From assembly GCA_032718475.1 (NCBI GenBank), contig JAUCBJ010004839.1:1-64000 (forward strand): a stretch of DNA of 64,000 nt, given 5' to 3'. A program made the translations under genes and the position numbers. The notes under the pieces are model-generated. The model was not told the origin of the DNA, ran no database searches, and was given only the letters and a program-made list of their open reading frames with translations. Source of the DNA: Nemertoderma westbladi. Its lineage: Eukaryota; Animalia; Xenacoelomorpha. Shown here piece by piece: positions 24,274 to 53,304 of this stretch (positions are counted from its first letter, which is position 1; the number at the start of each line of letters is the position of its first letter).

Positions 24274-24439
24274 AGATATCAATCGTCGCATTCATTTAGG
24301 TCACCTAGTTTCTTACAATTAACTTTCTTTTTAGAATTTATTGATATTATTTAACTACAACTATATATACAGATATCGGAGTTTTGTTTTAAAATTATGA
24401 TACTTTTATAAATTTTATGTTCAATATCTGTTTAATTTT

Positions 24440-30400: not shown

Positions 30401-33400
30401 ATATTTACTGAAATGTAGTGCACACCAACTCCTAGACATTACCATATCTGGATATTTACTGAAATGTAGTGCTCACCAACTCCTAGACATTACCATATCT
30501 GGATATTTACTGAAATGTAGTGCTCACCAACTCCTAGACATTACCATATTTGGATATTTACTGAAATGTAGTGCACACCAACTCCTAGACATTACCATAT
30601 CTGGATGTTTACTGAAATTTAGTGCACACCAACTCCTAGACATTACCATATCTGGATATTTACTGAAATTTAGTGCACACCAACTCCTAGACATTGCCAT
30701 ATCTGGATATTTACTAAAATGTAGTGCACACGAACTCCTAGACATTACCATATTTGGATATTTACTGAAATGTAGTGCACACCAACTCCTAGACATTACC
30801 ATATTTGGATATTTACTGAAATTTAGTGCACACCAACTCCTAGACATTGCCATATCTGGATATTACTGAAATGTAGTGCACACCAACTCCTAGACATTAC
30901 CATATCTGGATATTTACTGAAATGTGGTGCACACCAACTCCTAGACATTACCATATTTGGATATTTACTGAAATTTAGTGCACACCAACTCCTAGACATT
31001 GCCATATCTGGATAATTACTGAAATGTAGTGCACACCAACTCCTAGACATTACCATATCTGGATATTTACTGAAATGTAGTGCTCACCAACTCCTAGACA
31101 TTACCATATCTGGATATTTACTGAAATGTAGTGCACACCAACTCCTAGACATTACCATATCTGGATATTTACTGAAATGTAGTGCACACCAACTCCTAGA
31201 CATTACCATATCTGGATATTTACTGAAATGTAGTGCACACCAACTCCTAGACATTACCATATCTGGATATTTACTGAAATGTAGTGCACACCAACTCCTA
31301 GACATTACCATATCTGGATATTTACTGAAATGTAGTGCACACCAACTCCTAGACATTACCATATCTGGATATTTACTGAAATGTAGTGCACACCAACTCC
31401 TAGACATTACCATATCTGGATATTTACTGAAATGTAGTGCACACCAACTCCTAGACATTACCATATCTGGATATTTACTGAAATGTGGTGCACACCAACT
31501 CCTAGACATTACCATATTTGGATATTTACTGAAATGTAGTGCACACCAACTCCTAGACATTACCATATCTGGATATTTACTGAAATTTAGTGCACACCAA
31601 CTCCTAGACATTACCATATCTGGATATTTACTGAAATGTAGTGCACACCAACTCCTAGACATTACCATATCTGGATATTTACTGAAATGTGGTGCACACC
31701 AACTCCTAGACATTACCATATTTGGATATTTACTGAAATGTAGTGCACACCAACTCCTAGACATTACCATATTTGGATATTTACTGAAATGTAGTGCACA
31801 CCAACTCCTAGACATTACCATATCTGGATATTTACTGAAATTTAGTGCACACCAACTCCTAGACATTACCATATCTGGATATTTACTGAAATGTAGTGCA
31901 CACCAACTCCTAGACATTACCATATCTGGATATTTACTGAAATGTAGTGCACACCAACTCCTAGACATTACCATATCTGGATATTTACTGAAATGTAGTG
32001 CACACCAACTCCTAGACATTACCATATCTGGATATTTACTGAAATGTGGTGCACACCAACTCCTAGACATTACCATATTTGGATATTTACTGAAATGTAG
32101 TGCACACCAACTCCTAGACATTACCATATCTGGATATTTACTGAAATTTAGTGCACACCAACTCCTAGACATTACCATATCTGGATATTTACTGAAATGT
32201 AGTGCACACCAACTCCTAGACATTACCATATCTGGATATTTACTGAAATGTGGTGCACACCAACTCCTAGACATTACCATATTTGGATATTTACTGAAAT
32301 GTAGTGCACACCAACTCCTAGACATTACCATATTTGGATATTTACTGAAATGTAGTGCACACCAACTCCTAGACATTACCATATCTGGATATTTACTGAA
32401 ATTTAGTGCACACCAACTCCTAGACATTACCATATCTGGATATTTACTGAAATGTAGTGCACACCAACTCCGAGACATTACCATATCTGGATATTTACTG
32501 AAATGTAGTGCACACCAACTCCTAGACATTACCATATCTGGATGTTTACTGAAATTTAGTGCACACCAACTCCTAGACATTACCATATCTGGATATTTAC
32601 TGAAATTTAGTGCACACCAACTCCTAGACATTGCCATATCTGGATATTTACTGAAATGTAGTGCTCACCAACTCCTAGACATTACCATATCTGGATATTT
32701 ACTGAAATGTAGTGCACACCAACTCCTAGACATTACCATATCTGGATATTTACTGAAATTTAGTGCACACCAACTCCTAGACATTACCATATCTGGATAT
32801 TTACTGAAATTTAATGCACACCAACTCCTAGACATTACCATATCTGGATATTTACTGAAATTTAGTGCACACCAACTCGTAGACATTACCATATCTGTAT
32901 ATTTACTGAAATTTAGTGCACACCAACTCCTAGACATTACCATATCTGTATATTTACTGAAATTTAGTGCACACCAACTCCTAGACATTACCATATCTGG
33001 ATATTTACTGAAATTTAGTGCACACCAACTCCTAGACATTACCATATCTGTATATTTACTGAAATTTAGTGCACACCAACTCCTAGACATTACCATATCT
33101 GTATATTTACTGAAATTTAGTGCACACGAACTCCTAGACATTACCATATCTGTATATTTACTGAAATTTAGTACACACCAACTCCTAGACATTACCATAT
33201 CTGTATATTTACTGAAATGTAGTGCACACCAACTCCTAGACATTACCATATCTGGATATTTACTGAAATGTAGTGCTCACCAACTCCTAGACATTACCAT
33301 ATCTGGATATTTACTGAAATGTAGTGCACACCAACTCCTAGACATTACCATATCTGGATATTTACTGAAATGTAGTGCTCACCAACTCCTAGACATTACC

Positions 33401-33836
33401 ATATCTGGATATTTACTGAAATGTAGTGCACACCAACTCCTAGACATTACCATATCTGGATATTTACTGGTATGTAGTGCACACCAACTCCTAGACATTA
33501 CCATATCTGGATATTTACTGAAATGTAGTGCACACCAACTCCTAGACATTACCATATCTGGATATTTACTGAAATTTAGTGCACACCAACTCCTAGACAT
33601 TACCATATCTGGATATTTACTGAAATGTAGTGCACACCAACTCCTAGACATTACCATATCTGGATATTTACTGAAATGTAGTGCACACCAACTCCTAGAC
33701 ATTACCATATCTGGATGTTTACTGAAATTTAGTGCACACCAACTCCTAGACATTACCATATCTGGATATTTACTGAAATGTAGTGCACACCAACTCCTAG
33801 ACATTACCATATCTGGATATTTACTGAAATGTAGTG
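24440..33836. repeat. 51-bp satellite, left arm (~184 copies)
   Basis: Unit tagtgcacaccaactcctagacattaccatatctggatatttactgaaatg. Confidence 0.97.
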
Positions 33837-35758
33837 TAATTGAAGAGACAGCAACAATACCTGCAATATCCTACTGTAAAGTTTGTGAATCAAATCATAA
33901 ATCCGACCTTCTCACCAAAACAATAAACTCTAAGTAAGCGAATATATTGCAGTATCGATCTCTTATAACCGGTGAGGCAGAAAACAGTCTACGAGCAGAC
34001 AAACTTCGATGAAACAAAATCCCGCGCAGCGAATCCTAAAATCAGGCTGACTCACTGACGGACTAAGGGGCTCGTATACTTTGCCGCGGTGTGATTTATA
34101 TGGTTTGGGCAAAGAGACGCTAGCTAGGTACAGGCAGACTTGGAGATGTCTAACTAGCGGGCAAAACACAGTACGGACAAAGTTAATTTTATATATTTCG
34201 AGGTGTAAATAATTTCTAACGCGCGTGTGTTAATTCTGAACAGTCAAAAACAGTTTTGCTCCTTCACATATATAATTACTGGGTACGGTGTGCATTTTAC
34301 GAATATTCTAATTTTATAACTTGTAGGTCCAATACTCACGAATGATAAGGTTCCTTCCCCTCTTGCGTATTTCCAGGACTCAAATTCAGGCATAAGGTTA
34401 ATACTACGCCCAGAGTTCGGCAATTTTAGGTACCAGGTCCCTGATACTAAGAAGAGATGTGTTAGTTTACTACTGTAGGCGTACGGGTACTAATAGCTAT
34501 CCTGGCTCCTATCTAGAATTTTAGTCACCCAGGTAGTCCGGGTAACTTCCTATTAGGGCGTTGGCGGGGACACGGTAGATGTTAGTATCCCTGATAGCCT
34601 CAATTTATTTGCGCCTAGTGTAAACTGCCCTACCGCCTGAACGGTACAATCCCAATTCAGGTGAAAACACAATAACCCTCCTAACCTACAAGTTCTAATG
34701 CAATGGACACTGTCGTACTGCAAATAGTCGCACACGCACCTGTACTTAGCAAGAGTTAAGCGTACAGTTTGCTGCACCCTAACCAATGTGTATGCCTTGT
34801 ACCGGTGTGCCTACGTCCTATCTGCGTACTAGTATCTGCCTGCGCTCTCTCTCTCCCCCCGTAGGAATGTGAAGGTCTACTGTGGGTTTTTCCTGAATCA
34901 AGACAGTACAGTCCCTATGATGTAATTTTAGGCTTGCAGCGTGTCACTACGTCTACCTTTTGATCTTTGGTCTTACACTTAGGTAGCAAGGATCGAACGC
35001 TGTCTAACCTTTCAGGCGATGGGCGAATAACTATAGATGGTATTGCGGGTGTCTCTCGTCTACATTCCCGTGATGTTCCCGTTCATTGCTGCGGCCCGAT
35101 CTCTAGCCGGCCATCCTGTCCCTGAGTTTGTTCACCGTAGTGAATTCATAGTAAAACAGATAGAAAGCTGAGAGAATATTCTGACTTTATTACAGAAGAC
35201 ACAATTATAATACAATGTAATCTGAGAATAAACTAAGCACGACAGAATATTGATAAGATAATCTGAGAAAGATTGAGATATAAGATTGAATGTATAAGAA
35301 GTTTGTGTAAGCAAGTATACTAATGAACGAAATCGCACCTTTATATACTAAATTTGTGCCGCAATCAATCGAGAAAATTCTCGATTGTTCTATGGGTTCT
35401 AACGAGGTTTTAAAGATAGCTTATTGGTCCAGCTAATATATAACTTGCACGACATTGGTTACAATCAAATAACTACAGCCTTATTGGTACAGACAAATGC
35501 AATTAATTTGTAGCGGTTAATTTAAATGAGTTGAAATTCTGCACAAAAAATAATTCGCACTTACTAGGATTCGAACTCAATACCTACTACACATATAATT
35601 TCCAACGCTCTACCGACTGAGCTACTGAACCACTTGACCGATGGGTGTACAATAGATATAATAAATACAAATGAGGACTCAAAGCAATCTTTTACAAAGT
35701 TAATCCGAATAAATAGAAATTTTGAAAATCCACGGCATTTAGGGAATATAATTCTATA
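33837..35758 (-). repeat. 3' LTR (1922 bp)
   Basis: Matches 51383-53304 at offset 17546; only three substitutions noticed by eye (near 34134, 34298, 34415). Confidence 0.95.
35556..35631 (-). ncRNA. tRNA-like Pol III cassette in the 3' LTR
   Basis: Minus strand TAGCTCAGTCGGTAGAGC (A box / D arm), GAGTTCGAATCC (B box), then T6; acceptor and anticodon stems do not pair. Confidence 0.6.
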
Positions 35759-36388: not shown

Positions 36389-39300
36389 TTATCGTTTAGT
36401 AGATCGAGCCCTGCCGCGTCCTCGAAAACTTCGCACAGGTGACTTTGCTCGCGATATGGGACTAATGGGACGAGTCACTGGTTTACTTGGGACGTTGAGA
36501 GACGGTGCGACTATTTCCTCGCAAATTCGTCTATTTGGCATCCCAAAACCTCGACCGATTCCTCGTGACCGATCAGTCGTCACTACAGTTGGTAGAACGT
36601 CTGGGAACGCGCGAGAAGTGGACGATGCAGACCCAAGAGTAGCTTGCGCCCCCTGTTGATCAGCTGGTGTATGTCCCGATCCTCCTACTGGTTCTCTTGG
36701 AAGTGATACCGTATCCCGAGTAACTCGAATGGTCGGCTCAGCTCCCTTGCGTTCTTCTACATTAATAATTTTCTTTAATTGTTGGCCCACTTTCTGGACC
36801 CGTATGATCCTACCCTGTCCGTCCTCCCGAGGGTGACGTGCAGACGGCGCAACCGGAGTGGCTGGTATATTTGTCGCCTCTAGGACCTCTTCTTCCTCGA
36901 ATACGCTCGCTCGTATACGTTTGTGGTAAAACGCGGCTCGGTACGCCCATGCGACGGTTAACCAAGCTCCTTTATTCCGCTTTTCAGTTCGGAAACGATC
37001 GAATTCACCATACGTGATGCGATTAACGACTTTCTGAAAATTCCACGTGTTTTTGTTATCTGGGTGAATCTGTAATAGATACTCGCGCACTACTCGGATT
37101 CCACTGTCGTGGGGCAAAATATCGACTACCTCGATAAGTTCGTCATATTGGGGCATAGCGGAGATGTATCCTTCCGACATCATCGTTTGGGGATTTACCG
37201 CCCAAAATCCAAGATGCGCTCTCATCGGAAATCGTCTTCTTTGTGCCGATACATGTTCGTCGGCTAAATCTTCCCACTCATCGAATAATTTTCTCACGAG
37301 TTTTACAGATTCGTGTTCATAAGGTATGTCTCTTAGTTGGCATTCAGATGCTCGATGTCCCTTTATATTGCAGTAAGTACATTGAGCCATAAATCTCCAG
37401 CAAGTATAAAAGGTATGAGACCCTTGATCCCCACACCATCCACAGATTAGCTGAGTCGTAGTAATGTGCTTTCCACTGCACTTTGTCATATGATGTCCAG
37501 CGACGCCACATTTACTACACATCGTATTGGTAGGGTACCACACTCGTTCGTATATAAGATCTCCAATCGGTCGAGCGCTTCCTCCCATACTATAATCGTA
37601 ATCATCTGGGTCTATGGGTTGGTAGGTTTCTGAAGGTTGTATACAAACTATAGCATCTGTTGATTCAAGTTGTCGAATCTCCGTCTGAGATTTCTTCGGG
37701 AGGTTCCTTTCTATCTCAAGAAGTTCCTCTAAAGGATCGTCGGCGATCGTAGTAGTTACTTCGAATTCATCACCAAGGTGACCGATAGGCGCGCGCGTCT
37801 GCCGTGATTCTTCCGTAATCTCCACGATACGTTCTCCTTCATAGGGTAACAATGTAAACATAGATGGTCTTTCGATAAGAGATCCCGCACAGCGAAGATA
37901 CACGTCTCGAAATATACTAAATCCTGCTCGAGTAAAGGCATTACACTGAGCGTCGGAGTTGTAGAAGGGTTCAAGGAATCGTCTAAACACGTCGGTACGA
38001 ATTCTCCCTTCCATGTAGAACGTATGATCTTCTCCGAGACAAAGTGGATGTCTTTTGAGAGTCCGAGACACAATGTCGGCGATTAGGCAAACATTCACTG
38101 ACGACTCTATTGCTAAATAATATTGTAAGACCGCTCTTGGAGGTGACGTAATAGCCCAATACACGCATCCTCTCCATTTAAGCTGTGATTCAAACTCACT
38201 CATATCTGGAGTATCACCTTCTCCATAAGTTTCAATATACTTGTTTCTTTTACCTTCCTTATAATCCCAATTGAATAACAGGTAGGAAATGTATCCAGTT
38301 CCAGTCTTCTGAGTATTATACTCACGAAAATATCCCTGTTCTATAGACCACAGAATAAGAGGTCGGGTGTCGACGTATGGTGTCGGTAGTCGGTCATCGC
38401 TGTCCGTCATGCCGGCGAAGTCGCTAATTAAATCCTCCCTTACTCCTGATCCAACCTTTACAACAGTTTTATCTAAAATCATGTTTCTTACCATCTTCGG
38501 TAACATTCTAGCGTCAATATTACAAGCTTGGTCCATCTTCTTTACTATATCGGTGATAAGATGGTGTCGCTTTGTATTCGCTGGAGGTATCGGCATTCGT
38601 TTGTCGCTTCTCTGTCTACTGAAAACGTGCAGGACTCCGTCCGCCGCTCTAATCTGTATAGTCTTAGAAGTCAAACTCTGCTGATGACTGCCTCCCTCGT
38701 TATCGTAAAACATATAACCGTTTTCCTGAAACGATCTAAACGTCCTAGTCCATTCATCCAACAATTCTTCTGAAGGTTGCCAAATCTTCTCTATATCCTT
38801 ATCCTCATCGAAACGAATAACCTTACCTCGCCAATCTGCGGCAATATCCGTATCCGACTCGAAGGTTCCGGTTCCAATCCATAAGCGAATCGTCTTGGTT
38901 AGATATCCTTTTAGATTACTCGGAGCTATGTCGGCACCAGCTCTATCCAATTCCTTAAAATCTTGAATATGAGGTGGAACGTTGTTCACGACCTTTTGAG
39001 TAATATGTCTACGTAAATCATATATCTTACTCATATCGCTGAAAACAACTGCAGGAAGAAACTCCAAGTTTGAAATGATTTCTGGATGATCCACGATGGG
39101 TATTTCGTACGTCGTATCCTGTCGGACTGGTATACTAATAGGGAAATTGAGTGTCGTACTCAATGGTTTCGTAGTTGAAGTACTATACGGTTGCATTTCT
39201 CTTGTCCTCTCCGGGGATGCAATCTGTAGTCTCTGAATAACGTTTTGAGCAAAGTTTATGCTCTCGAAAACTTCCGGTGTCATCTCCTTAGCTGAAGTTT

Positions 39301-39694
39301 GATCGTGTGACGTCCAATGGCAAGGTAGGCTCGCGAGTCTTCCACCCCATTCTTCCATCTCACCTTTCTCGAAAGCCTTGTAGGCTCTGTATAGGCTAAG
39401 AGCTTCTTTCTTTTCGCGGGTTGACTGATTTGCCTCGTCCCGCTTTCGTCCTTCTGGGCTCCTCCCGGAGGCGCACCCACGAGGCGGACGTGTTTCCACC
39501 ACCCCTGGGGCCAGTCCGACAGATGTTATTATCAGACCGGGCCGGAGGGTGGCCTGATGCTTCCCGGGTTCTGTTTTCGGTCCCCCGATCACACCAGCAC
39601 AGCTCGTCGAACGTGTAGCCAGATGGGCGGCTACTGTCAACTTACTGTGGCCTGACTGTACATTGAGCCAACTCAAAGTATAACAAAGAGTCAA
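36389..39694 (-). CDS. Cargo ORF: DEDDy 3'-5' exonuclease-like domain (WRN-exo/RNase D/EXD type) plus three Cys/His zinc knuckles; first ATGs at 39358 and 39283
   Basis: YMFYDNEG (ExoI), TIQIRAADGVLHVF, LPKMVRNMILDKTVVKVGSGVREDL (ExoII), YVDTRPL, YW...LQYYLAIE (ExoIII-like). Knuckles CSKCGVAGHHMTKC, CGWCGDQGSHTFYTC, CTYCNIKGHRASEC. RG/RS-rich tail. Confidence 0.75.
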   Translation of the reverse strand: MTLCYTLSWLNVQSGHSKLTVAAHLATRSTSCAGVIGGPKTEPGKHQATLRPGLIITSVGLAPGVVETRPPRGCASGRSPEGRKRDEANQSTREKKEALSLYRAYKAFEKGEMEEWGGRLASLPCHWTSHDQTSAKEMTPEVFESINFAQNVIQRLQIASPERTREMQPYSTSTTKPLSTTLNFPISIPVRQDTTYEIPIVDHPEIISNLEFLPAVVFSDMSKIYDLRRHITQKVVNNVPPHIQDFKELDRAGADIAPSNLKGYLTKTIRLWIGTGTFESDTDIAADWRGKVIRFDEDKDIEKIWQPSEELLDEWTRTFRSFQENGYMFYDNEGGSHQQSLTSKTIQIRAADGVLHVFSRQRSDKRMPIPPANTKRHHLITDIVKKMDQACNIDARMLPKMVRNMILDKTVVKVGSGVREDLISDFAGMTDSDDRLPTPYVDTRPLILWSIEQGYFREYNTQKTGTGYISYLLFNWDYKEGKRNKYIETYGEGDTPDMSEFESQLKWRGCVYWAITSPPRAVLQYYLAIESSVNVCLIADIVSRTLKRHPLCLGEDHTFYMEGRIRTDVFRRFLEPFYNSDAQCNAFTRAGFSIFRDVYLRCAGSLIERPSMFTLLPYEGERIVEITEESRQTRAPIGHLGDEFEVTTTIADDPLEELLEIERNLPKKSQTEIRQLESTDAIVCIQPSETYQPIDPDDYDYSMGGSARPIGDLIYERVWYPTNTMCSKCGVAGHHMTKCSGKHITTTQLICGWCGDQGSHTFYTCWRFMAQCTYCNIKGHRASECQLRDIPYEHESVKLVRKLFDEWEDLADEHVSAQRRRFPMRAHLGFWAVNPQTMMSEGYISAMPQYDELIEVVDILPHDSGIRVVREYLLQIHPDNKNTWNFQKVVNRITYGEFDRFRTEKRNKGAWLTVAWAYRAAFYHKRIRASVFEEEEVLEATNIPATPVAPSARHPREDGQGRIIRVQKVGQQLKKIINVEERKGAEPTIRVTRDTVSLPREPVGGSGHTPADQQGAQATLGSASSTSRAFPDVLPTVVTTDRSRGIGRGFGMPNRRICEEIVAPSLNVPSKPVTRPISPISRAKSPVRSFRGRGRARSTKR

Positions 39695-40610
39695 CCGGCA
39701 GGTGGACCAGTCGATAGCGATCGAGCACCAAGGTCGCCCTTGGGCCTAACCGACGGTCTTGTCCCATGTGGGCTTGCGCTACCCAACATGGAATTTTGAC
39801 TCGTTTTCACCTGCCTCGCCGGCAATATTGAGGGGAAGTAAGTTCCACAAACAATATTGACTAGCTCGAAAGCTAGGAACAAGTAACCACTTACCCGTCC
39901 TGTACACGTGTACTCAACAGATGTTCACGAAATCAAGTACACTACGGTAAACACAAATCTGACACATACCATGCACACACAGAGGACATAATCGGGTAAA
40001 GACAAAATCGGGGTCAAATCGGGAAAGACAAAATCAGAGGGGACAAAATTGTATCAACTCATAAAGAGTCGAGAGTACCTTATTTTACCGACAGGGTAAA
40101 ATAACTTTGTGTGCACAAAGTATGCTGGGGCGCAGTAAAGATATGGTCCTACTAATACCAGCGGCGTCTTGTCCAACTGGCAAGGGTTCCCATACCCACT
40201 CGCAGTGGCCACACATACAATCACGTGTACTCACGTACCTACAGCAACAGAAAGCCCAAAACCCGAACAAATCCCAAAGACCAATCAGCTGAACATGGAG
40301 ACAATAACATATAGTATCAAAAAAACGGAACAGCTGATGGCCAAAGGAACCCATCCAAGCCCCAAGCAAACTGCCACTGGTTGCTCACATACAAAACATA
40401 GTTCACGCCACATGAGCCACAAATCACGCCATGCCACCACCCCTACTGTGACTGGCAGTACGGCAACAGGCCGACTAGACGGTACCACGGCACCATGGCG
40501 ATTCATGGTTCGTTAGACACGAGGGCCTTCAGTGACTCCCTAGCACTATAGAACAAATTTAACGTGCCCCTAGACCCTCACGAGTCCGCCGCCGCCTGTT
40601 TACGCCACCC

Positions 40611-41309
40611 CTATAGAGACCTCACCTCTTTAGGTAGCGTAAGTTCAAATACATCGGGTTCAACAACCTTAGGTGGGTAAATGACAGTTTCTCCCGCCTT
40701 TGGTCCGGTCATAGCAAATGAATGATATGGATTCGATAAAGGATACCCTCCTTCCTGGTAGCGTAGTTGTTGATGATTCGAACACCTCGCCAATATCGGT
40801 TCGGGATTTTCCTTATTCAAACGCATCGGAATCGCATTTCGTTGTTCGCGCATACAAGAACCGCATTGATAATAAAGTTTATAAACTGAAAATGCTTCCT
40901 TGGTTTCTCTATCGTCCCCTCGAGTTCGTCTGTAAAGATGCATTCCATCGAATTCATCGCGTACCGCAGGCATAGGTTCATGCGCCTTTAGGTATTGCAT
41001 GGTATGATACAAACGACTAATTTCAGTATCGGGGTCTTCGCTAATGTCTCCCGTATCACACAAAGCATCGTACGGGTAAAGTTCGTTGAAGGTTTGACGC
41101 AAACTTTCGATTCTTTCGTTTAATGCGTTTTGTCTTCTCTTTAATACGTTCGAGTCATATTTAGTTCTCGCGAGTTTCGCTGTACTTTCCGATAATTCTT
41201 TTATACCGAATATAGTATAATCCTTGGCTCCAAATCTTTCGAATGGCGCTGCTGCCTCCTCTTGGATATCATATCCCCATCTCGGCTCTCCTTGTATCCC
41301 TTTCTCCAT
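40611..41309 (-). CDS. Cargo ORF, 232 aa, unknown function (helical N-half; CxxC...CxxH)
   Basis: Intact ATG-to-stop ORF on the element's sense strand between integrase and the exonuclease ORF. Confidence 0.6.
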   Translation of the reverse strand: MEKGIQGEPRWGYDIQEEAAAPFERFGAKDYTIFGIKELSESTAKLARTKYDSNVLKRRQNALNERIESLRQTFNELYPYDALCDTGDISEDPDTEISRLYHTMQYLKAHEPMPAVRDEFDGMHLYRRTRGDDRETKEAFSVYKLYYQCGSCMREQRNAIPMRLNKENPEPILARCSNHQQLRYQEGGYPLSNPYHSFAMTGPKAGETVIYPPKVVEPDVFELTLPKEVRSL

Positions 41310-41971
41310 AATTAGGGTGTAGTTACATAATCATTACTACTAGAGGGAATACAACAGAGTTTGTAGTTAGTTGTGAGGAGACGTGAGAGTTTCGTCTGCC
41401 CTTTGGGCTCGACAACGCTCTAACCTCCTACCCATAGCCTAAGATCTAGGGTTTCTTTAATGACACGCTGCTTCTTATCTAAAATTTTTTGCCGAAATAA
41501 AAACGAATTTGGGCTAAACTGGCCGTGAGTCTAAAATACTCACCTTTTGATCCCAAACTATTATCAGAAAATAAGCAGTCAAGAATTAGTAATAAATATA
41601 GGGGAGTCTATTTATTGACGTAACTTATTGAAACAAGACCGTGTAAAATTTAATTAAAAAATTTTTAAGAAAGGCTCGCAAGTCTTCCTCTCTTGTTTCT
41701 CTAATTTTAAGTTCCACCCGACTGTACCCTGAAATCTATTCACTGGAGAAAATTTTAAAATTTTTCAAATCCAAATGGATTGTCTAAAATTTCAAAAATG
41801 TCTCAATATTGTGAGTTCCAAGTAGAATTCCATTTCTTATACCTACAAATCCCGCTCCTATGTGACACATAAGGGTACTACCCTCAATGTTCACATATAA
41901 AGACAATGGAATTCTACCGCTGTCCTTACTACGGTGTACAGGTACGTGGAAATCTATTTGTAAACTCCTAA

Positions 41972-43318
41972 TTATTTACTAGTATTAGGTGGAGATTTGT
42001 AGTCTCCAGACTCGTTACGAGTCTCTTCAAGAAGTACGAGACGTTGAGTCGGTCTGTCTACTGTACGACCGTCAATTGTCCGTACCGTCGCAGTCCTTGT
42101 CACTCCATCCATAGATGGATGTGTGGCTAAAATGACACCTGTTATCCAGAAGCGTCTTTTTAGATTCACTTCTGCCAACAGCACGTGATCTCCCGGCTTT
42201 AATGCCCGGGTGTTATTGTACCATGTTGTTCTGGCAGAAATAGAGGGCAAATAATGGTTTTGCCATATTTCCCAGAATTTGTTACCCAGTAGTTGCGTGA
42301 TTTTCCACGCTTTTCTACCGTAACTGTCGCTTTCTATTGGAATAGAAATCGGCGTTAATGTCGTCGGTGCCTGCATAAGCAGGTGTGCCGGTGTTAAAGC
42401 AAACTGGGATTGTTTGTCATCGGGTACTAATACTATTGGTCTAGTATTTAGTATTGCCTCGATTTCAACAAACAATGTTGTCAGTTGGTCGTCTGTTAAT
42501 ATGTGGTTTACTGGAATGACCTTTGCCATGGCTGTCTTTATAGATCTAATCAATCTCTCCCAGACTCCGCCTCTCCAAGGACTATCTGGAGGATTAAACT
42601 TCCAAACAATCTTGTGAGGTTGTAGTTCGTTCGAGATTTGATCATGATCTAATTTCTTAAAGGCTCTAGCAATCTCATTCCGAGCACCAACAAAGTTTGT
42701 CCCTTGGTCTGAGTACAAGCATTTTACTAGTCCGCGTCTAGCGATAAATCGCCGCAGTGCTAGTATAAACGCGTTGGTGGAAAGATCCATCACACGTTCA
42801 ATGTGAACTGCCCTACTGGACATACATGTGAAAATCAGTCCCCAGCGTTTTACTAGTATGCGTCCACGTTTCGTATGTATGGGACCAAAGCAATCCATTC
42901 CAGTCTCTGTAAAAGGTGGTCTGAATGCTTGAAGACGTGCTTTTGGTAGTTCACTCATTTCTTGGGTACCTATTCTAGAATGTACCTTTTTACAAATAAT
43001 ACACGTACGTGTCACTGAACTTAATGCTTTACTGGGTCTAATTAATACAAATCTAGTACGTAAGTAGGAAAGACAGTGGTGTCTTCCAGCGTGTTTCAGA
43101 TGTAAATGTGCGTCCAGTATCATTGCACGTTGTAGTTCGTGATGTTGCGGTATTATTATTGGGTACCTAAAGTTTGTGTTAAAGTCAATATTTTGAAGCC
43201 GAGATTTATGACAAATTAAGCCATTATAAATTATCGGACTCCAACTCAGTATTGGTGACGACTTGATTGGTAGACCTTGATTTATAGATGTGAATTCGCG
43301 CGCGAAATATCGCAGTTG
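41972..43318 (-). CDS. Integrase portion of pol
   Basis: HLHLKHAG...CIICKK; GMDCFG; LYSDQGTNF; GGVWERLI; C-terminal GVTRTATVRT...RPTQRLVLLE. Confidence 0.9.
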   Translation of the reverse strand, partial: QLRYFAREFTSINQGLPIKSSPILSWSPIIYNGLICHKSRLQNIDFNTNFRYPIIIPQHHELQRAMILDAHLHLKHAGRHHCLSYLRTRFVLIRPSKALSSVTRTCIICKKVHSRIGTQEMSELPKARLQAFRPPFTETGMDCFGPIHTKRGRILVKRWGLIFTCMSSRAVHIERVMDLSTNAFILALRRFIARRGLVKCLYSDQGTNFVGARNEIARAFKKLDHDQISNELQPHKIVWKFNPPDSPWRGGVWERLIRSIKTAMAKVIPVNHILTDDQLTTLFVEIEAILNTRPIVLVPDDKQSQFALTPAHLLMQAPTTLTPISIPIESDSYGRKAWKITQLLGNKFWEIWQNHYLPSISARTTWYNNTRALKPGDHVLLAEVNLKRRFWITGVILATHPSMDGVTRTATVRTIDGRTVDRPTQRLVLLEETRNESGDYKSPPNTSK

Positions 43319-46300
43319 GTAATGGCAATTAACTTAATCTCACACCTGTCAATCTCAGCCAATGTAAGTCGACGTGTAAAGTCACGTTTGCCTTTAACGT
43401 ATTGTACAAAACGTACAATCCACGCTAATTTTCGGCAAGCGTTTGTCCAAGAGTCTGTTAAGTTTACAATACGGTCGACATGAGTATTTGTGACGTCATC
43501 AGGTAAGTCAATGGAGATTTTGGAAGGTTTTGAATTACTAGAAGGGCCCACGGGTCCGCCGGTAAGTATTCCCTTGTTGACTGTTGATCCGTCCGGGTCT
43601 ACAAGTAATTTGTCCTTCTTCGTCTTCTTACCTTGATTGTCAGTACTTTGTAAGTCGATCGTTAATGGTGGTTTGAACTCTATGGGGTCAGCAGGTTTCG
43701 GTAAACTTATTTTTCTGCCGACATTAATCCCAGGTCTCACCATAGGTTGCAAGTTCGGTATGTCTCTTGAGCGCAAAGTAACACCTGTATTTACATTAGC
43801 GTAGGTACTACCCACATCTGTAATACATGAGGTTTCACCGTGCTTATGGTTGCTCAAGTGTGTCAAAATTGGTAGTTTGTCAATACAAGGCCGCTCCAAT
43901 AGGGAAACTGCGGCTTTATTGTTAGTCGGTACATTACTAATGTCCGGTAGAACATTTTGTGATGTTTCTGACAAAATGTCTAGTCGACTGTCTAGTAATG
44001 TGTCTGGCGATACGTCTGGTAACGTATCTGGTTGTTTGTCAATAGAAGGCCGCTCCAATAGGGAAACTGCGGCTTTACTGTTTGTCAGTACGTCACTAGT
44101 GTCTGGTAGAACATTTTGTGATATGTCTGACAAAACGTCTGGTTGACCGTCTAGTAACGTGTCTGGTTGACCGTCTGGCGATATGTCTGGTGTAGAAAGG
44201 CTCGCAAGTCTTCCTCTCTTGACCTTTGAAGTTATATCTTTCCATTTCGCCTTCGGTTTTTTCTTGAGTTTCGCCGCCGTTGTCCTTTTCTTTGTCTTCC
44301 CCTTTTTTGGTTTCTTGATTTCGGCGTCCTTGGGAATGGTGTTGGACTTGTTGTCGTATAACGGAGGCCAGTCTTGTGTCGATTTCTGCAAGAATTGGGG
44401 TCCGTGTTGCCAAAATTCTTTGTTCTCCGGTTTACAGAATTCCTCAGGCATCATTCCTCGCGACGCAATATCAGCTGGGTTTTGTGGTCCGGGACAATGT
44501 CGCCAATCCCCTTTTATTGAACGGTCTAGAATTTCCGCGCGACGGTTAGCAACGAATGTCTTGAATTCAAGTGTGTCGTTGTTTATGTAAAATAAAACCA
44601 ACGTCGCGTCAGTCCAATAAAATATCTGTAAACTCGACTGTAGTTCTGTCTGTATGAGGTTCACGATGGTGGTTGACAGGGTTGCGGCTTGTAGCTCGGC
44701 TCGTGGTGTCGTCATATACTTAGTAGGCATAGTCTTAGCCTTAGAAGTAATGAGCGAAACATCGAACTCGTCTGATTCTACTTGTCTGCGTAAGTACGCT
44801 GCCACACCAAAACCGTTGTCACTGGCGTCAGAAAAACAGTGTAGTTCCAAGTTGTCAGGAAATGTACTTTGCAATGGAAAGTAAACCCTGGGTATGAAAT
44901 AATCCTCTAGCGAAGATAATTCCGCCTCCCAGGTCTTCCATAAGTCCACTTGGTCTGATGAGATCGGCTCGTCCCATGTTAGTCCATCTTTCCATATACT
45001 GCGCATATAAATGCGGGCTTGCAGTATCACTGGACTGATGAATCCTAACGGATCGAACAATCGGCTCAATTTTGACAAGCATGATCTCTTGGTCAGTGTG
45101 TTCCCTTGACTGTCCAGTCTCACCTTCACTCGAAAGTTGTCTGTGTTTGGGTCCCAAAAGAGCCCCAACACCTTAGTCGTCGGTAGTGGTTCGAACTCTA
45201 GGTCTATGTCACCTCCTCCACGCTCAGTAGTTCCGAATGAGTCTACTAATTCGGCACTGTTTGAGGCGAATTTGGTGAGGTTAAAACCTCCGCCCGCTAA
45301 GCAGTCCCGTAATTGATGTGCTACTGTTGTAGCACGTTCTACTGTGTCGCAACTCTGTAACTCTAGCGGCCTGCTTTAGGGCGTACATCGTACAATTTGG
45401 GCTGTCTCTGGCACCGAAAACGCGAACTTGCATTTGGTAAGTTGCCGGTGGTAGACTTAAATCTCCTTCCGGGTACCAGAGGAACCGCAAACTGTCTCTG
45501 TCTCGCTCTAACGCTTTTACTTGGTGAAACATCGCTTCAACGTCACAAGTAAAAGCTACTTGACGCTGACGGAAGCGCATAATCACCCCCATAAGATAAT
45601 TATTCATGTTCGGTCCATCCATCAACTCACTATTGAGGGACATTCCCTCAAACAGAGCCGCACAGTCATTGACTACACGTACTTTGTCTGGTTTGTCGGG
45701 ATGTCTCACATAGTGATGTGGCAGGTAGTATGTTTGGTCAGTCTCTATCTCTGGGTTAGTCATTCGGATAGCGTATCCTTTCGTCAAATACGTCTCCATC
45801 TGAGTGTTGTACTGCAGATGGGCTTTCTTGTCCTTTAATAGACGTTGCCGTATTGAGTGTAGACGTCTTAAAGCCAGTGGGTAGTTGTTTATAAGTTTAG
45901 GACTTTGGCTATGCCATAACATCCCTACCTCATAATGTCCGTCTTTCGTCTGGCGGATAGTATCTTCCATGATCTTCAGAGATTGTTTCTCCTGTTCCGA
46001 CATGCAAGGTTCGTAGCTACCAGGTTCAGCTGTATCTTGTTCTAACCACCTGATAGTCTTCTCCGTTAATTTTTTGTCCAAGGCGGCTTGTTCCAACTGA
46101 TGAATTTTCAACGCGTCATCGTCAATATCGACGGGCACTGTTGAGGTTATTGGGGTAGGTAGACTCGCAAGCCTATCATCTGTCGTCGATGGAATCTCTA
46201 GCTGTCTCGTCTTCTCCCCAAGTTCTAAACTCACCTTGTGGGTTAGCTGCTCCTTGTGACTTATCATACTAGTTACCCGTCTGTCATGTTTTGTCGACTG

Positions 46301-49300
46301 TAGCGTAGTATGGTTCACGTCGAGTGAAAAGGAATGAATTGAATTTGTAGTTAATAAACTACATGTACTCTGTACATCGTCTTCCTCGTCACTTACGTCT
46401 AGTGTGCGCACAGGCGCTCGAGTATACCACCCTATCGGCGTTCTGCAGGCGTATGCGTTTCCCGCTACAACTGCCGATGGTCTGGTTTCCCACACCTGAT
46501 GTAGGTTGAATTGGTCCGTCCCGATCAGCATTGCTACCGATCTATAATTGACAGGACATTCGGGTACACCAAGGTGTCTGAAATACTTACGGTCCTCCAG
46601 AGATTGTTCCGGCACTGGACCTAGTAGGTTACTAAAGTCCTTCGTGGCCGCAAAGGTTAGATCTCTAAAGGGCAACAAAGACCTCTCCCTCTCGCTGTGT
46701 TGCGATTTTGGAAGAAGAGAGTCTAAGTCCAACTTAACTCGTGTCACTGGTATTGCACGCTGTCCGTGCATACTACTTACTGTATAACTGACGTGCTTAC
46801 CTTGTTTTAGATCCGTCACAACGTCAGCTATCTTTTCGTCCACGTAGCTATGGGATGAGGCTGAATCTAGAATCGCATAGATCCTCTTGCTCCCTTTTGT
46901 GCCAGTAACCTTGATCGGGATTACACTGAACCCCTTCAGTTGATCAGTAGTCAGGAGCGCGATCGACGGTTGTTCGTCTCCATTGGAATATTCATCGTCG
47001 TCTTCTGATTCTTCGTCCGACGATCCGGATTGTTCTGAGAAGCAATCCTCAATATGGGTCACGAATGTTGGAGTCGTTTTTGATTCTCGTTTTCGGTAGG
47101 CCGCATCACATCTCGCTGCTGCTTCCGGGTGTTCCCTGGCGAAGCGTTTCGTCGGCGTGTGGCTGTCTGTGTGGAGCAGACCGTCGTGGTTGCGTCCACA
47201 GGATGGACAAGTGTCAGTATTTGGGCAATCCTTACGCACGTGTCCGTGTCGCGTACACCGCCAACAAGAGTCCAGTGGCCGTATCTGCAGCCGTCGTTCT
47301 TCCGAGTTCAACTCGCAAAATTGTCGACAACCTCGTAACTTGTGACCAATATACCGCTTACCTAGATGCTCGCAGTATTGGCAGCCGTTGAAGTCGGTGC
47401 TGAGTTGCTGTCTCGTCTGTTTCGTCCCAATGGGCGCAGATACTCTATTACCGTCTGAGAATTGTCGTGATTCCGTCGGTGTGGCGTAAGTGGCCGTCTT
47501 AGTGGATGTTGTCTGGGGTTTTTGTCGGTTAGAGGATGGCAGTATGATTCCTTCTGCCACGATGTGCTGGTCGGTGTAGTTAGATCGAGTTTCTACTACC
47601 GCCTCCCTGGATATTAAAAGGTACACATCTTCTAATTTTAAGAATCCTCCCCGCTCCTCTCGCTGGTATTCGACCTTCCTCCACTCCCAACGAAGTTGAT
47701 GGTGGAGTCGTCCTATTATCTTTAATAGGACTGTAGGGGTATTCCCGTAATCAAGTTGTCCAATTGATTTTAAGGTAGTGATAGCGTTCTTGATTTCGTC
47801 AGCTAGTTTTAGTAAGTCGACGGGTTTAGTGATAGCCCCTCCCTTACAGAGTTCCTCTATTACTGACCTGGCCATGCTCACTGTACCTCCGTATATCGAA
47901 GTTAAACGATCGTACGCTAGTTCGAAAGCGTCCGGTACACCGACGAAAGTCTCCGCCAAACGTTTAGGTTCTCCTGACAACGTTTGGAGCAAGTAATTGA
48001 ACTTCTCCCGTGATGTAAAGGCGCACACGGCGATCTGGGATTCGATATAGTTCGCCAGTGTTTTGAGCTACCGGAAAACTTCGGTGGTTGTTGTACCGGC
48101 AATCCCTGTCTGGCTGCGAATTTCGCTATCTCCTCGGCGACGTTCAAAGTTTCGCGTCCTTGGTTGGCAACCGGGTTGTTGTTCTCCCTTCTTGGCGCTT
48201 TTCTTTGATACGATGTGGGGTTTGAAGGTACCGGTCTTTGTGGTTCCTTCGGGTGTCTATTGTGTTCGAATTCGGAATTTCTCGAACTGTCGGTTTGAGC
48301 TTCCTCCAGACGTTCCTCGATCTGAGCCAACTTGTTGACAACTGGTCGCAGAATGTCGGCGAACTGTTGCGTACTAATTGCGTCCGTTGGTTGTAACGCC
48401 TTCTGTGTTGGTGTATTCTGTGGAGGATTGTCTACAAAGGAGTTGTCTGAACGCTCGCGTTTATATTCATCGGCCGCCCCTGTTCTAAATACCTCGCGTT
48501 TCGGGTAATCCGATTCGCTCGAAGTACTACTATCATCTGGATATGGTGGTCGACGTGCTCGCGTCCGTTGCGTCGTACTAATTCTAACGGTTCGTTTCGG
48601 AACATCGTCTCGCTTTCGTTGTTTGGTAGGCTCACAAGTCTTCCTCGAAGTCGTAGATTGCGATGTAAACTGGTTGAACGGTCGCGTATCCACTGTTCTC
48701 CGTTGTTCGGTAGGCTCACAAGTCTTCCTCGAAGTCGTAGATTGCGATGTAAACTGAACCGGTGGTCGGACGACAGCGTTTGAATCAACTGGCCTTGTAG
48801 GTCAAAACGTCATTGGGTAAGCGTAGTGGGTAACGGGTTTAGGTGTCGACGGTGGACTCACCTGTTTTGTCGTCAGTAGCGCAGGTCCGGTCAATAAACT
48901 ACTACGATCCGTAATCGGTGGGTTACTTACCTTGCCTTTCGGAATGGGCGACGACGTTGCTCTTGAAGGTATAAGCTTGTCCGGAATAACAAACCTGTGT
49001 TCCGTCATACCGTGGATAGGAGAAATATCACTACTACCCGCAATCGAAACAGGTTCCTTTGTCATAACCGGTGCAAACATATGAGTTACCTGTGGGAATC
49101 GTTGACACACGTCTTTTACTAATTGTCGTTCCCGTCCGGGTGCTCCTACGCTTCCTTCCTTCTTCCGTTCCTGAATTTGGCGATGTCTTACCTCTAACTG
49201 GTCCAAATCATGTCCGTCACGAGATCTCATCGATCGATCGCGGGCCTTTTGATCCAGATCTTCCTCAGCGTTCGCTAATTCTCTCGCCTTCTTCTCAAGT

Positions 49301-50535
49301 TCGAAATGAAGTTTAGCTGTCTTCTCTCGTTGTTCCGTTTGTCGTTGTTGCGCCTCACACTCTGCTTGTCGTATAGCGGATTGAGCTTTTATTTGCCGTG
49401 TTTTCATTTCGGCCCGTGCTTCCGAAACTAACCTGTCTCGTTCTAATTCCGCCGCTGCCGCTGCCGCTTGTCGCTCTGACTCTGCCGCTGCCGCTTGTCG
49501 CTCTGTCTCTGCCGCTGCCGCTGCCGCTTGTCGGGCAATGTCTACCTCTAACCTTTCTACTTCAGCTGCTTCTAATTCAGCTTGTTCCTGTAGATGAGAG
49601 ATTCTCGCTATATTCGCAACGCGTAGCTTCTCTTCCTCTACTGCTGCTTGCATCACTAGAAGTTGAGCTTGTTCCTCCATTTCTCGTCGTTGTCGGTAGA
49701 ATTCTTGCTGTTGTCGAGCAACTTCTGACGTAACCATACTTCCCTCGCAGATTTCGCTACGAATACTTACCAGCGATTGATTTAGTATTCCCGGTGCCGA
49801 TTCGATTTGTGCGAATGAAGTTTCCCTCATATATTCCGGCACTGTTTCCAAATCGCCGACGTCTTCGCCGCACATGCGTAAGTGGTCCGTCAGGTGTTTT
49901 AATTGTCCATCCAGTCGGTACAGTTCCTGTTCTTCCTCGGGTTGTAATAATTCGTCCGAAACCGACTCACCTAACAACTGGTCCGCTTGTTCCTGTTGTA
50001 TCTGTCTAATCGTCGACTTAAACTGAATCAGTTTCTCTCTAGTGATCATTAGTTTCTCGAGGATTCTAAGTTGAGTATCCATGTCCTGTCTCTGTCTAGC
50101 TAGATCTTGTAGGCCAACTAGATTATCTACGGACTTATATACTTTACTCTGTACTCTAACCTGGAGGGTGTAGAACTCGAATCGAGACATCGGAGCGGTC
50201 AACCCGTCTAATATGCGTTGGCCTTCTCCAATACTCCTGGTAATATGCGCCATGTAACCTCCGACGCTTCTAACCACACTTTCTGTGCTTCCTGCTGAAC
50301 TTACCATTTCCGTTTCCCTGTATCTAGGTTGCGGAACAGTTAGAAAGTCCTCGGTCCTGCCGTCACCTCGTACTACGGCATCCGGTACTCCCGTTGGATG
50401 TACTGGTGACGCACACGGTGTAGGTTCGGTAGGCTCGCGAGTCTTCCCCTGTTGTTCTTCCGCTGCTGACTTATCTCCGTCACACGAGTCATAGTCGGTA
50501 GGTGTATTCTTCGTATAGTCTTGTTTGTCACTCAT
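41972..50535 (-). pseudogene. BEL/Pao gag-pol polyprotein, disrupted
   Basis: Coiled-coil N-terminus; KFSG...EKFNYL gag; three Cys/His knuckles; protease AILDSAS; RT YYLPHH, KVRVVNDC, DVEAMFHQV, FGARDSP; RNase H LHCFSDAS, PRAELQAA, YWTDA, NPADIASRG; integrase HHCC plus D,D,E. Lesions: TGA at 48802-48804, frameshifts near 48050 and 43318, deletion near 45361. Confidence 0.92.
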
Positions 50536-50618
50536 TTCGGTAGTTGTAAGTCAAGTAAAGTGAGTGTCAAAGTATCGAGTTTTACCGTATTTATACAAAA
50601 CGGTACTAATTACAGTCT

Positions 50619-50745: not shown

Positions 50746-52885
50746 CAAATAAATCGGATAACGATATGCGTTATCAAAAGGTAAATTAAATACAATAATA
50801 CGGACTAATTCAGCAATGAACAAAGAAATCATACGGAATGCATAAATACTTGAGACAGTGGAACCCACAATAATTTTAATTAATACGGTAATGCCTAACT
50901 TATTTATGCAACTTTTCGAACTCACCCACTCCAATAATTCTCCAGAAAAACAGATTCCCAGATACAAACCGAACGTGAACCTTTCCGTTTCCAGCGTTGC
51001 GGACGAAACGCGATTTTCCCAACCAAAGTTGTTGGGTTATCTATCTCCCAAACTTGCTAAACACGGTCTTGCTCCCGTTACAGTCTAGAAATGAGTTCTG
51101 AATCCTGAAAAAACAAAAGAGTTAGGTTTTACTTTACGAAAATTTTGTACCGGTACAATATGGTATTTAAACCCTTTTAAACACCGGTATTCAATTCCAA
51201 AAATATTTTACACGCGGTTCAAATCAAATTTTATTTCAAAAAATTAGCACTTAGCTAATCAAATACAAACTTTTACCTCAAAATACAAAATTTTCAAATA
51301 ACTTTAGTCCTACCGAACCGTAGTTCAGTAAAACACATTCCTACTAATTTAGGAAATATGTTAAATAATACCACATTCCTACTAATTGAAGAGACAGCAA
51401 CAATACCTGCAATATCCTACTGTAAAGTTTGTGAATCAAATCATAAATCCGACCTTCTCACCAAAACAATAAACTCTAAGTAAGCGAATATATTGCAGTA
51501 TCGATCTCTTATAACCGGTGAGGCAGAAAACAGTCTACGAGCAGACAAACTTCGATGAAACAAAATCCCGCGCAGCGAATCCTAAAATCAGGCTGACTCA
51601 CTGACGGACTAAGGGGCTCGTATACTTTGCCGCGGTGTGATTTATATGGTTTGGGCAAAGAGACGCTAGCTAGGTACAGTCAGACTTGGAGATGTCTAAC
51701 TAGCGGGCAAAACACAGTACGGACAAAGTTAATTTTATATATTTCGAGGTGTAAATAATTTCTAACGCGCGTGTGTTAATTCTGAACAGTCAAAAACAGT
51801 TTTGCTCCTTCACATATATAATTACTGGGTACGGTGTGCATTTAACGAATATTCTAATTTTATAACTTGTAGGTCCAATACTCACGAATGATAAGGTTCC
51901 TTCCCCTCTTGCGTATTTCCAGGACTCAAATTCAGGCATAAGGTTAATACTACGCCCAGAATTCGGCAATTTTAGGTACCAGGTCCCTGATACTAAGAAG
52001 AGATGTGTTAGTTTACTACTGTAGGCGTACGGGTACTAATAGCTATCCTGGCTCCTATCTAGAATTTTAGTCACCCAGGTAGTCCGGGTAACTTCCTATT
52101 AGGGCGTTGGCGGGGACACGGTAGATGTTAGTATCCCTGATAGCCTCAATTTATTTGCGCCTAGTGTAAACTGCCCTACCGCCTGAACGGTACAATCCCA
52201 ATTCAGGTGAAAACACAATAACCCTCCTAACCTACAAGTTCTAATGCAATGGACACTGTCGTACTGCAAATAGTCGCACACGCACCTGTACTTAGCAAGA
52301 GTTAAGCGTACAGTTTGCTGCACCCTAACCAATGTGTATGCCTTGTACCGGTGTGCCTACGTCCTATCTGCGTACTAGTATCTGCCTGCGCTCTCTCTCT
52401 CCCCCCGTAGGAATGTGAAGGTCTACTGTGGGTTTTTCCTGAATCAAGACAGTACAGTCCCTATGATGTAATTTTAGGCTTGCAGCGTGTCACTACGTCT
52501 ACCTTTTGATCTTTGGTCTTACACTTAGGTAGCAAGGATCGAACGCTGTCTAACCTTTCAGGCGATGGGCGAATAACTATAGATGGTATTGCGGGTGTCT
52601 CTCGTCTACATTCCCGTGATGTTCCCGTTCATTGCTGCGGCCCGATCTCTAGCCGGCCATCCTGTCCCTGAGTTTGTTCACCGTAGTGAATTCATAGTAA
52701 AACAGATAGAAAGCTGAGAGAATATTCTGACTTTATTACAGAAGACACAATTATAATACAATGTAATCTGAGAATAAACTAAGCACGACAGAATATTGAT
52801 AAGATAATCTGAGAAAGATTGAGATATAAGATTGAATGTATAAGAAGTTTGTGTAAGCAAGTATACTAATGAACGAAATCGCACC

Positions 52886-53033
52886 TTTATATACTAAATT
52901 TGTGCCGCAATCAATCGAGAAAATTCTCGATTGTTCTATGGGTTCTAACGAGGTTTTAAAGATAGCTTATTGGTCCAGCTAATATATAACTTGCACGACA
53001 TTGGTTACAATCAAATAACTACAGCCTTATTGG
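52886..53033 (-). promoter_or_regulatory. Putative LTR Pol II promoter: three CCAAT boxes, HSE-like palindrome, TATA box
   Basis: Minus-strand CCAAT at 53029-33, 53000-04 and 52969-73; TATATAAA at 52886-93; AATAAA at 52732-37 downstream. Confidence 0.6.
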
Positions 53034-53101
53034 TACAGACAAATGCAATTAATTTGTAGCGGTTAATTTAAATGAGTTGAAATTCTGCACAAAAAATAAT
53101 T

Positions 53102-53177
53102 CGCACTTACTAGGATTCGAACTCAATACCTACTACACATATAATTTCCAACGCTCTACCGACTGAGCTACTGAACC
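53102..53177 (-). ncRNA. tRNA-like Pol III cassette in the 5' LTR (U3)
   Basis: A box, B box and T6 terminator, as in the 3' LTR copy. Confidence 0.6.
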
Positions 53178-53304
53178 ACTTGACCGATGGGTGTACAATA
53201 GATATAATAAATACAAATGAGGACTCAAAGCAATCTTTTACAAAGTTAATCCGAATAAATAGAAATTTTGAAAATCCACGGCATTTAGGGAATATAATTC
53301 TATA

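Follow-up and report, generated by a model that had tools for sequence, protein, structure and literature searches.

The window analysed here, a 64,000-nucleotide (nt) stretch of contig JAUCBJ010004839.1 from the xenacoelomorph Nemertoderma westbladi (GCA_032718475.1, positions 1 to 64,000 of the forward strand), contains a BEL/Pao retrotransposon on its minus strand, and the question it raises is what is encoded by the long gene, here designated ORF3, that this element carries in its env position. A first-pass annotation had proposed an uninterrupted 3.3-kb open reading frame (ORF) at this place, and the frame is indeed stop-free over 1118 codons from stop to stop (36389..39745, minus strand), for which the chance is about 7e-29. 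Its proposed start at 39694 did not hold: the codon there is TTG, the frame is open from 39745, and the first ATG lies at 39358, giving 989 amino acids (aa). ORF3 is flanked by the integrase (43333-41972) and the 3' long terminal repeat (LTR; 33837-35758), as annotated, although a further 239-codon ORF (41330-40611) on the integrase side had been missed. We describe a probable DEDDy exonuclease domain in ORF3, report that it is under purifying selection, and tentatively propose a role for the protein.

The probable 3'-5' exonuclease domain, WRN/EXD-like, spans aa 335-567 (38045..38743, minus strand), with D348, E350, D438 and the candidate pair Y543/E547 as its key residues. The motif order of WRN-exo, EXD, mut-7 and RNase D, previously read by eye, was recovered in full: FYDNE (38710-38696), IQI (38659), LPKMVRNMI (38503), KVGSGVRED (38458-38432), YVDT (38377), W530 and LQYYLAIE (38128-38105) follow one another along ORF3. 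With these domain bounds, ESM Atlas returned a value of 0.93, PF01612 in 30/30 matches and a recognition of 2681; a value of 0.9 is attained by 4 to 10 of 100 shuffled proteins. Among the 18,950 models of NCBIfam, the single match was DnaQ, at aa 344-408 in the ExoI part (E 0.023). A WRN-like profile was built from 29 bacterial proteins, drawn from 80 by a 75% identity filter, leaving out 120 Acinetobacter homologs that were too similar. In hmmsearch with this profile, ORF3 ranked first of 71 ORFs, and hhalign gave it a score of 23.2 against 13.0 +/- 2.5 for shuffles, 0 of 150 being as high. Over 36 windows of the element's proteins, hhalign scores above 22 were confined to three windows with ExoII.

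The order of the motifs was scored as a chain of seven WRN-like blocks, which were chosen with knowledge of the query. Whole ORF3 reached 63.1, compared with 36.9 +/- 4.3 for 60 shuffles (maximum 45.1), about 6 standard deviations (SD) higher, and 28-40 for four other element proteins; the other chain score was 75, where shuffles went no higher than 53. Alignment by MAFFT with 40 bacterial WRN-like proteins placed D348, E350, Q364, K430, G432 and D438 on invariant columns. The ExoI D-x-E follows a hydrophobic strand (D348/E350), and the ExoII Asp follows K-x-G-x-G, with K430-G432-D438 in register in hmmsearch, hhalign, MAFFT and the chain. As for ExoIII, the candidate Y543-x3-E547 was the best fit for blocks from Tyr on (11.4 vs 4.0) and was tied or beaten for blocks starting earlier.

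Several results weigh against this assignment. A wider ESM Atlas query gave only 0.79-0.80, and the Atlas match has 168 shared features, just below the 170 typical within a family. The hmmsearch match had an E of only 0.29, and the hhalign probability was 4%, with failure in global mode. Looser gaps in the chain test shifted ExoI to aa 309, and MAFFT and the chain test both prefer an ExoIII register at aa 521-534, where the acid is missing; the final Y-x3-E of the first-pass annotation is present as a motif, and its register competes with this second fit. No PF01612 or other exonuclease match to ORF3, whole or in sub-regions, was returned by Pfam, a search that the annotation had named as a check; HMMER filters discard weak matches, which bears on this absence. 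There was no sequence match to ORF3 in PDB and no homolog in 5.8 billion proteins or in 1.84 billion representatives. Metagenome and viral contigs likewise yielded no homologs, an exact look-up found 0/3, plasmids gave 3 chance rows (E 3-4), Pfam and PHROGs searches with ORF sub-regions gave chance-level rows only (QueC, PRO8NT), and comparison with a single bacterial WRN-like protein by BLASTP produced no significant match. Finally, the single-sequence AlphaFold model of the domain was uninformative (predicted local distance difference test, pLDDT, 31), and its Foldseek rows are meaningless.

The structural comparison by AlphaFold and Foldseek proposed earlier gave matches only when guided by an alignment. 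The guided model (pLDDT 60; predicted template modelling score, pTM, 0.52) matches EXD2 (Foldseek E 4e-4), as well as diDNase, Exd1, RNase D, TbRND, Nibbler and Egl; VIA gave a Z of 8.8 with a root-mean-square deviation of 4.0 over 149. These fold matches are circular and provide no independent support, because the alignment came from the exonuclease family itself. The DEDDy fold claimed in the annotation is thus backed by the Atlas, the NCBIfam DnaQ match, the WRN-like profile and the chain, and finds no echo in Pfam, PDB or the homolog searches. From these sequence comparisons, we consider it very likely that the domain has a DEDDy fold, with WRN/EXD as the probable nearest type, and we put the odds that it is catalytically active at slightly better than even.

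In sister copies the exonuclease stretch is under purifying selection. The 40 best-supported of the 77 differences in 37950-38850 comprise 29 synonymous and 11 non-synonymous changes, 27/40 at third positions, with a ratio of non-synonymous to synonymous differences (pN/pS) of 0.10-0.16 (p at most 2.5e-8, where differences from 4 runs, representing at most 3 samples, are counted as sites and not as independent events). No indel occurs among the differences listed, and two gap-free pieces of 500 and 553 nt, ~83% identical, carry 84 and 87 differences. Among the same best 40, the codons of E350 and D438 have changed synonymously, and none alters D348, Y543 or E547. A separate contig comparison found 8/10 listed changes in ORF3 (2 shared with the preceding set) and 2/2 in the 239-codon ORF to be synonymous. 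The conservation in sister copies that the first-pass annotation had named as a check was therefore observed.

Beyond the domain, the three CCHC-like zinc knuckles noted earlier were located at aa 743-802 (37340..37519, minus strand), in the order 37519-37478, 37444-37400 and 37381-37340. A 90-aa piece with the knuckles matched Pfam zf-CCHC at E 0.003, below the family cut-off, and matches to retroviral nucleocapsid fingers were weak (best E 0.034). The basic RG/RS-rich tail was also found as described, in the last 59 aa (36392..36568, minus strand; 15 K/R vs 2 D/E). The highest 19-residue hydropathy is 1.38, where 1.6 is the usual threshold for a membrane helix, in agreement with the earlier remark that no obvious transmembrane segment is present. 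An env role for ORF3 was rejected because it has no hydrophobic segment.

A candidate message for this region was found in one contig of run X4 (depth 211), which joins 50926 to 41339. The 9586 nt that it skips start with GTGAGT (donor at 50920..50925, minus strand) and end with CTCTAG, after a branch-point-like CTAAC and a pyrimidine tract (41340..41375, minus strand, including the AG acceptor). Of the 15 joints listed, beyond which there are 66 more, 14 were examined, and this one alone has GT-AG ends. The joint ends 30 nt before ATG 41309 of the 239-codon ORF, with two out-of-frame ATGs in between, and since it carries the leader to just before this ORF, the layout is that of an env message. 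Counting against splicing, the joint comes from one contig in one run with 30 nt on its short side, and its acceptor was not listed by a strict acceptor scan. Run X5, guessed to be RNA and with a depth under 9, does not count towards expression here, and read depths were not converted into copy numbers. We regard it as quite likely, judging by these signals, that the ORF3 region is expressed from its own spliced subgenomic RNA, consistent with the annotated cargo gene in env position.

The 239-codon ORF (40611..41330, minus strand) between integrase and ORF3 has no family match, and a short likeness to the ORF3 N-terminus is not significant (E 0.11). In the copy analysed it is separated from ORF3 by a 1195-nt stretch (39441..40635, minus strand) that is missing from other copies: contigs of runs X1, X2 and X4 join 40636 to 39440, which places the 239-codon ORF and ORF3 in one frame. 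The element family therefore has a long form, represented by the copy analysed, and a short form with one longer frame. The 1195-nt stretch is not bounded by GT-AG: its ends at the observed joint are AC..CG, on which ground a simple intron was rejected there. No similar sequence exists elsewhere within the window. Internally deleted copies without the exonuclease domain also occur in runs X1, X2 and X4, with joints 37830/41150 and 37942/41170 (37830-41170).

The host element, which is young and multi-copy, measures 19,468 bp. Repeat comparison identified two 1922-bp LTRs with 3 site differences, the 5' LTR at 51383..53304 and the 3' LTR at 33837..35758, both on the minus strand. The 5-bp target duplication TAGTG stands at both element ends, a length typical for BEL/Pao, and the insertion lies inside a 51-bp satellite. 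Gag and protease, up to the start of the reverse transcriptase (RT), occupy three frames (50550-48805, 48801-47920 and 48067-45284; together 45284..50550, minus strand) with a DUF1759 match (E 3.8e-6), a gag Cys-His box at 47368-47266 and an LDSA motif at 46870. The end of RT and RNase H follow at 43282..45375 (minus strand; Peptidase_A17 E 3e-42, DAS at 44829), with a frame break near 45300-45370, and then the integrase, which in this copy has its own frame (41972..43333, minus strand; DUF5641 E 9e-21, Integrase_H2C2 E 8e-5). The order gag, protease, RT, RNase H, integrase is thus marked by Pao-type Pfam domains and by the LDSA, DAS and HHCC motifs in sequence order. From the DUF1759, Peptidase_A17, Integrase_H2C2 and DUF5641 matches the element is assigned to BEL/Pao (Belpaoviridae), as the annotation had it. 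Relatives of the integrase were absent from metagenome and viral contigs.

A motif search did not find the RT YxDD motif at its expected place in this copy. With gag-pol split over five frames (41972-50550) and without YxDD, yet only 3 LTR differences, the copy was probably mobilised in trans a short time ago. At the RT break, additional letters are present in contigs of run X4. RNase H and integrase are separated by a long insert of low complexity (43400-44300), in which 159 bp are duplicated in tandem. A 16-nt motif, GGAAGACTYGYGAGCC, occurs in 8 copies between 36058 and 50447, all on the element's sense strand, where 0.01 would be expected by chance; the copies lie in coding parts, in different frames, and in non-coding parts, and none is found elsewhere in the window. 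Its core is nearly palindromic, making it a candidate protein-binding or dimerisation site.

The sequence directly after the 5' LTR has no TGG start and shows no typical 18-nt tRNA-Arg/Gly site, although it may still match an internal part of a host tRNA. The 11-nt primer-binding site there (51372..51382, minus strand; second copy 51334-51344) is the exact complement of LTR nt 888-898, a candidate self-primer at the predicted RNA start (52407..52417, minus strand; 3' LTR copy 34861-34871). A complement within the LTR exists for only 12 of the 15,614 11-mers of the internal region, and two of these 12 are the primer sites. When the RNA was folded from nt 888, the helix had a mean pairing probability of 0.90; when folding began before nt 888, it was divided between both copies of the primer site. 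The LTR 11-mer is overlapped by TCACATT, which we take to be initiator-like. This complementarity resembles that of Tf1-type self-priming. Two accompanying structures were rejected: a Tf1-like extended stem beside the 11 bp (103/300 shuffles as good) and, upstream of the 11-mer, a fold resembling a tRNA (z -0.6 to 0.6). A clear polypurine tract was not found directly before the 3' LTR, and a G6(AG)n run is located after the LTR 11-mer.

Further observations concern the LTRs. Their termini are TA..TA instead of TG..CA (33837, 35758, 51383 and 53304). In one X2 contig the LTR end is joined to the second primer-site copy, as expected of an element that has one such site only, adjoining the LTR. 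At LTR nt about 135-214 (53090-53170 and 35544-35624) there is a tRNA-like stretch with an A-box match, a T6 run and a B-box-like GAGTTCGAATCC, seen by eye and missed by regex; neither ARAGORN nor Rfam called it. It recalls the tRNA-derived LTR pieces described for Helenus elements (PMC10886601).

In our best explanation, to which we assign a probability of about 0.35, the ORF3 product is an accessory 3'-5' exoribonuclease that acts in trans, likely against silencing RNA. From the env slot, the gene would be expressed through its own spliced subgenomic RNA as a soluble protein apart from Gag-Pol, which would fit action in trans. The three CCHC knuckles and the basic tail would hold single-stranded RNA so that its 3' end enters the exonuclease active site, as with the TbRND fingers. 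The enzyme would then shorten or clear the material on which host silencing draws, most likely fragments derived from the element and immature small RNAs, and the loss of this material would blunt that silencing. In TbRND, the RNA substrate is bound by CCHC fingers joined to a DEDDy domain (PMC7797062); the ends of precursor PIWI-interacting RNA (pre-piRNA) are trimmed by Nibbler, a member of this family, and relatives trim piRNA and microRNA ends (PMC11347159); and the exonuclease of arenavirus NP destroys immune-triggering RNA (10.1101/2025.09.09.675144). We infer that the substrate would be RNA rather than DNA, and the RNA target is the weakest step of the explanation. Two considerations weigh against it: the role favoured by Rodriguez et al. 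is the processing of RNA ends of the element itself (PMC5408684), and as to the target our results favour none among a trans-acting exoribonuclease, a binding adaptor and a replication helper.

A weak or dead domain whose nuclease fold is used for binding, giving an RNA-binding adaptor like Egalitarian or EXD1 that would localise, shield or package element RNA, is a possibility that we rate somewhat lower than the best explanation. It would suit an ExoIII acid that is E instead of D, or missing, and knuckles resembling nucleocapsid fingers, and the eight-fold sense-strand GGAAGACTYGYGAGCC would offer a possible binding site. Egl keeps all five DEDDy residues, yet mutating them spares RNA binding and function, and EXD1 is inactive (10.1101/2025.08.03.668247); PDB also holds an Egl-BicD structure with the I-factor localisation signal. 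Set against an adaptor are the retention of D348, E350 and D438, with only synonymous changes at the latter two among the best 40 of 77 differences, and Y543-x3-E547 as the best local fit to blocks from YAATD on. We think it unlikely that the enzyme is instead a replication helper trimming the element's own nucleic acid ends, either a self-primer or a complementary DNA (cDNA) 3' overhang; a self-primer cut from the RNA 5' end might, for example, be shortened until only the 11 bp paired with the primer site are left. The 11-nt complementarity with its pairing probability of 0.90, the TA..TA ends and the missing polypurine tract fit such a role, and the absence of a tRNA-type primer site departs from the description by the International Committee on Taxonomy of Viruses (ICTV; PMC8742986). 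The run with the spliced form is guessed to be DNA, so the subgenomic RNA may be packaged, and RNase D-family enzymes are described as trimming structured RNA ends (PMC5408684). For Tf1, however, RNase H suffices to produce the 11-nt primer (PMC7175516), and the element shows neither the extended stem nor the tRNA-like fold; because Tf1-type self-priming needs only RNase H, primer trimming is retained as a rival.

A bolder version, which we consider quite unlikely, has a tRNA-free element self-priming from its own LTR transcript, with a knuckle-guided exonuclease from the spliced message trimming the primer to the 11-bp duplex and possibly doubling as a Nibbler-like saboteur of piRNA ends. Primer trimming by an element-encoded exonuclease would be a priming chemistry undescribed for LTR elements in the available text of the literature found. 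We judge it improbable that the domain is not DEDDy at all, in which case an accessory protein under selection would have look-alike motifs in an alpha/beta domain unrelated to that family. Such a protein would account for the blank standard searches and for the low confidence of both the single-sequence and the guided model, but three methods agree on the superfamily over different parts of the domain, namely the Atlas (whole domain), NCBIfam DnaQ (ExoI part) and the WRN-like profile (ExoII part), and the motif chain stands about 6 SD above shuffles. A passenger, meaning a recently captured piece of a host gene carried without benefit, would fit the internal deletions at 37830/41150 and 37942/41170, which remove the domain from some copies. 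It is largely refuted by the pN/pS of 0.10-0.16 across copies, the gap-free relatives at ~83% identity, the 3.3 kb without introns and the lack of a close cellular homolog, and we consider it highly improbable.

The statement in the first-pass annotation that DEDDy cargo ORFs occur in rotifer retroelements proved accurate: ORF3s with a DEED motif and untested function are described in the bdelloid rotifer Juno1/2, Vesta2/5 and Athena/Terminon retroelements (PMC5408684; PMC6431247). They share with the ORF3 analysed here a non-envelope third gene after pol, a DEDDy-type domain and the lack of a membrane segment. They carry one D-to-E change, as the candidate E547 would be here, and are described as typically made from spliced messages. 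They are found in Juno, Vesta, TelKA and Mag-type lineages or in Penelope-like elements; the LTRs there end in TG..CA and measure 159-551 bp, and no BEL/Pao case is named; in place of the DEED motif, ORF3 here has D438 as its third acid and E, or none, as its fourth. No knuckle array on the rotifer ORF3s is described in the available text of PMC5408684. The term 'exonuclease' does not occur in that of the BEL/Pao survey (PMC3118150), and our literature search, which left Repbase and supplements outside its scope, found no BEL/Pao element with an exonuclease gene. In the available text of the literature found, DEDDy cargo of LTR elements is thus described only for rotifer Juno/Vesta and for Terminons, and a BEL/Pao case is without report.

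Among cellular proteins, TbRND (PDB 7c42) resembles ORF3 in having a DEDDy exonuclease followed by a CCHC finger array. It is a 375-aa enzyme with four fingers about 28 aa past the domain (PMC7797062), whereas the ORF3 protein, about 1000 aa long or longer, has three fingers about 175 aa past the domain, and the likeness is likely convergent. WRN-exo, EXD2, Nibbler/MUT-7, Egalitarian and EXD1 (PF01612) agree with ORF3 in motif order, and WRN has a matching counterpart to the ExoII segment LPKMVRNMILDKTVVKVGSGVRED. Compared with bacterial WRN-like members, the ORF3 domain has about 17-25% identity and no significant hidden Markov model match, and it differs from the PF01612 group by insertions, about 30 aa long past strand 3 and about 20 aa long ahead of ExoIII.

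With Belpaoviridae the element shares the gag Cys-His box, the order protease-RT-RNase H-integrase, the Pao-specific Pfam domains and the 5-bp duplication (PMC8742986; PMC3118150). It is larger, at 19.5 kb versus 4.2-10 kb, with LTRs of 1.9 kb versus 0.2-1.2 kb, and unlike them has no 18-nt tRNA-Arg/Gly site, a third gene that is not env-like and TA..TA ends (PMC8742986). As in Tf1/sushi, 11 LTR nt are complementary to the site right after the LTR; in Tf1 the first 11 RNA bases pair with the primer site, followed by an RNase H cut, and such self-priming is described for Ty3/gypsy chromoviruses and predicted in some Copia lineages (PMC7175516; PMC6317226). The element differs from Tf1 in having no supporting stem beside the 11 bp and an RNA start that is predicted.

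Outside the element, the 51-bp satellite is present in at least 316 copies at 24400-33836 and 53305-60100, and its unit of 17 codons produces long repetitive ORFs on either strand. Exon-like pieces of a laminin-G domain gene lie on the plus strand at 1225-1677 and 17236-17814; the second, which alone was searched, matched agrin, neurexin and laminin (best E 2e-13), which by itself points to an animal host. The element may lie inside an intron of this gene. Broken ORFs at 7148-11789 on the plus strand, with a GDFN endonuclease-type motif and an RT leader, presumably belong to a non-LTR element, which they resemble by eye.

A second DEDDy capture, in BEL/Pao, combines another motif change with RNA-binding fingers of its own, selection and splicing of the env type. 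For the biology of these retrotransposons, this suggests that the env slot serves accessory genes in general and that control of RNA 3' ends is a recurrent investment of such elements. Should the ORF3 product act on small RNAs, it would be a rare case, in an animal, of an anti-silencing enzyme encoded by an element; should it trim a self-primer, the understanding of LTR priming would change.

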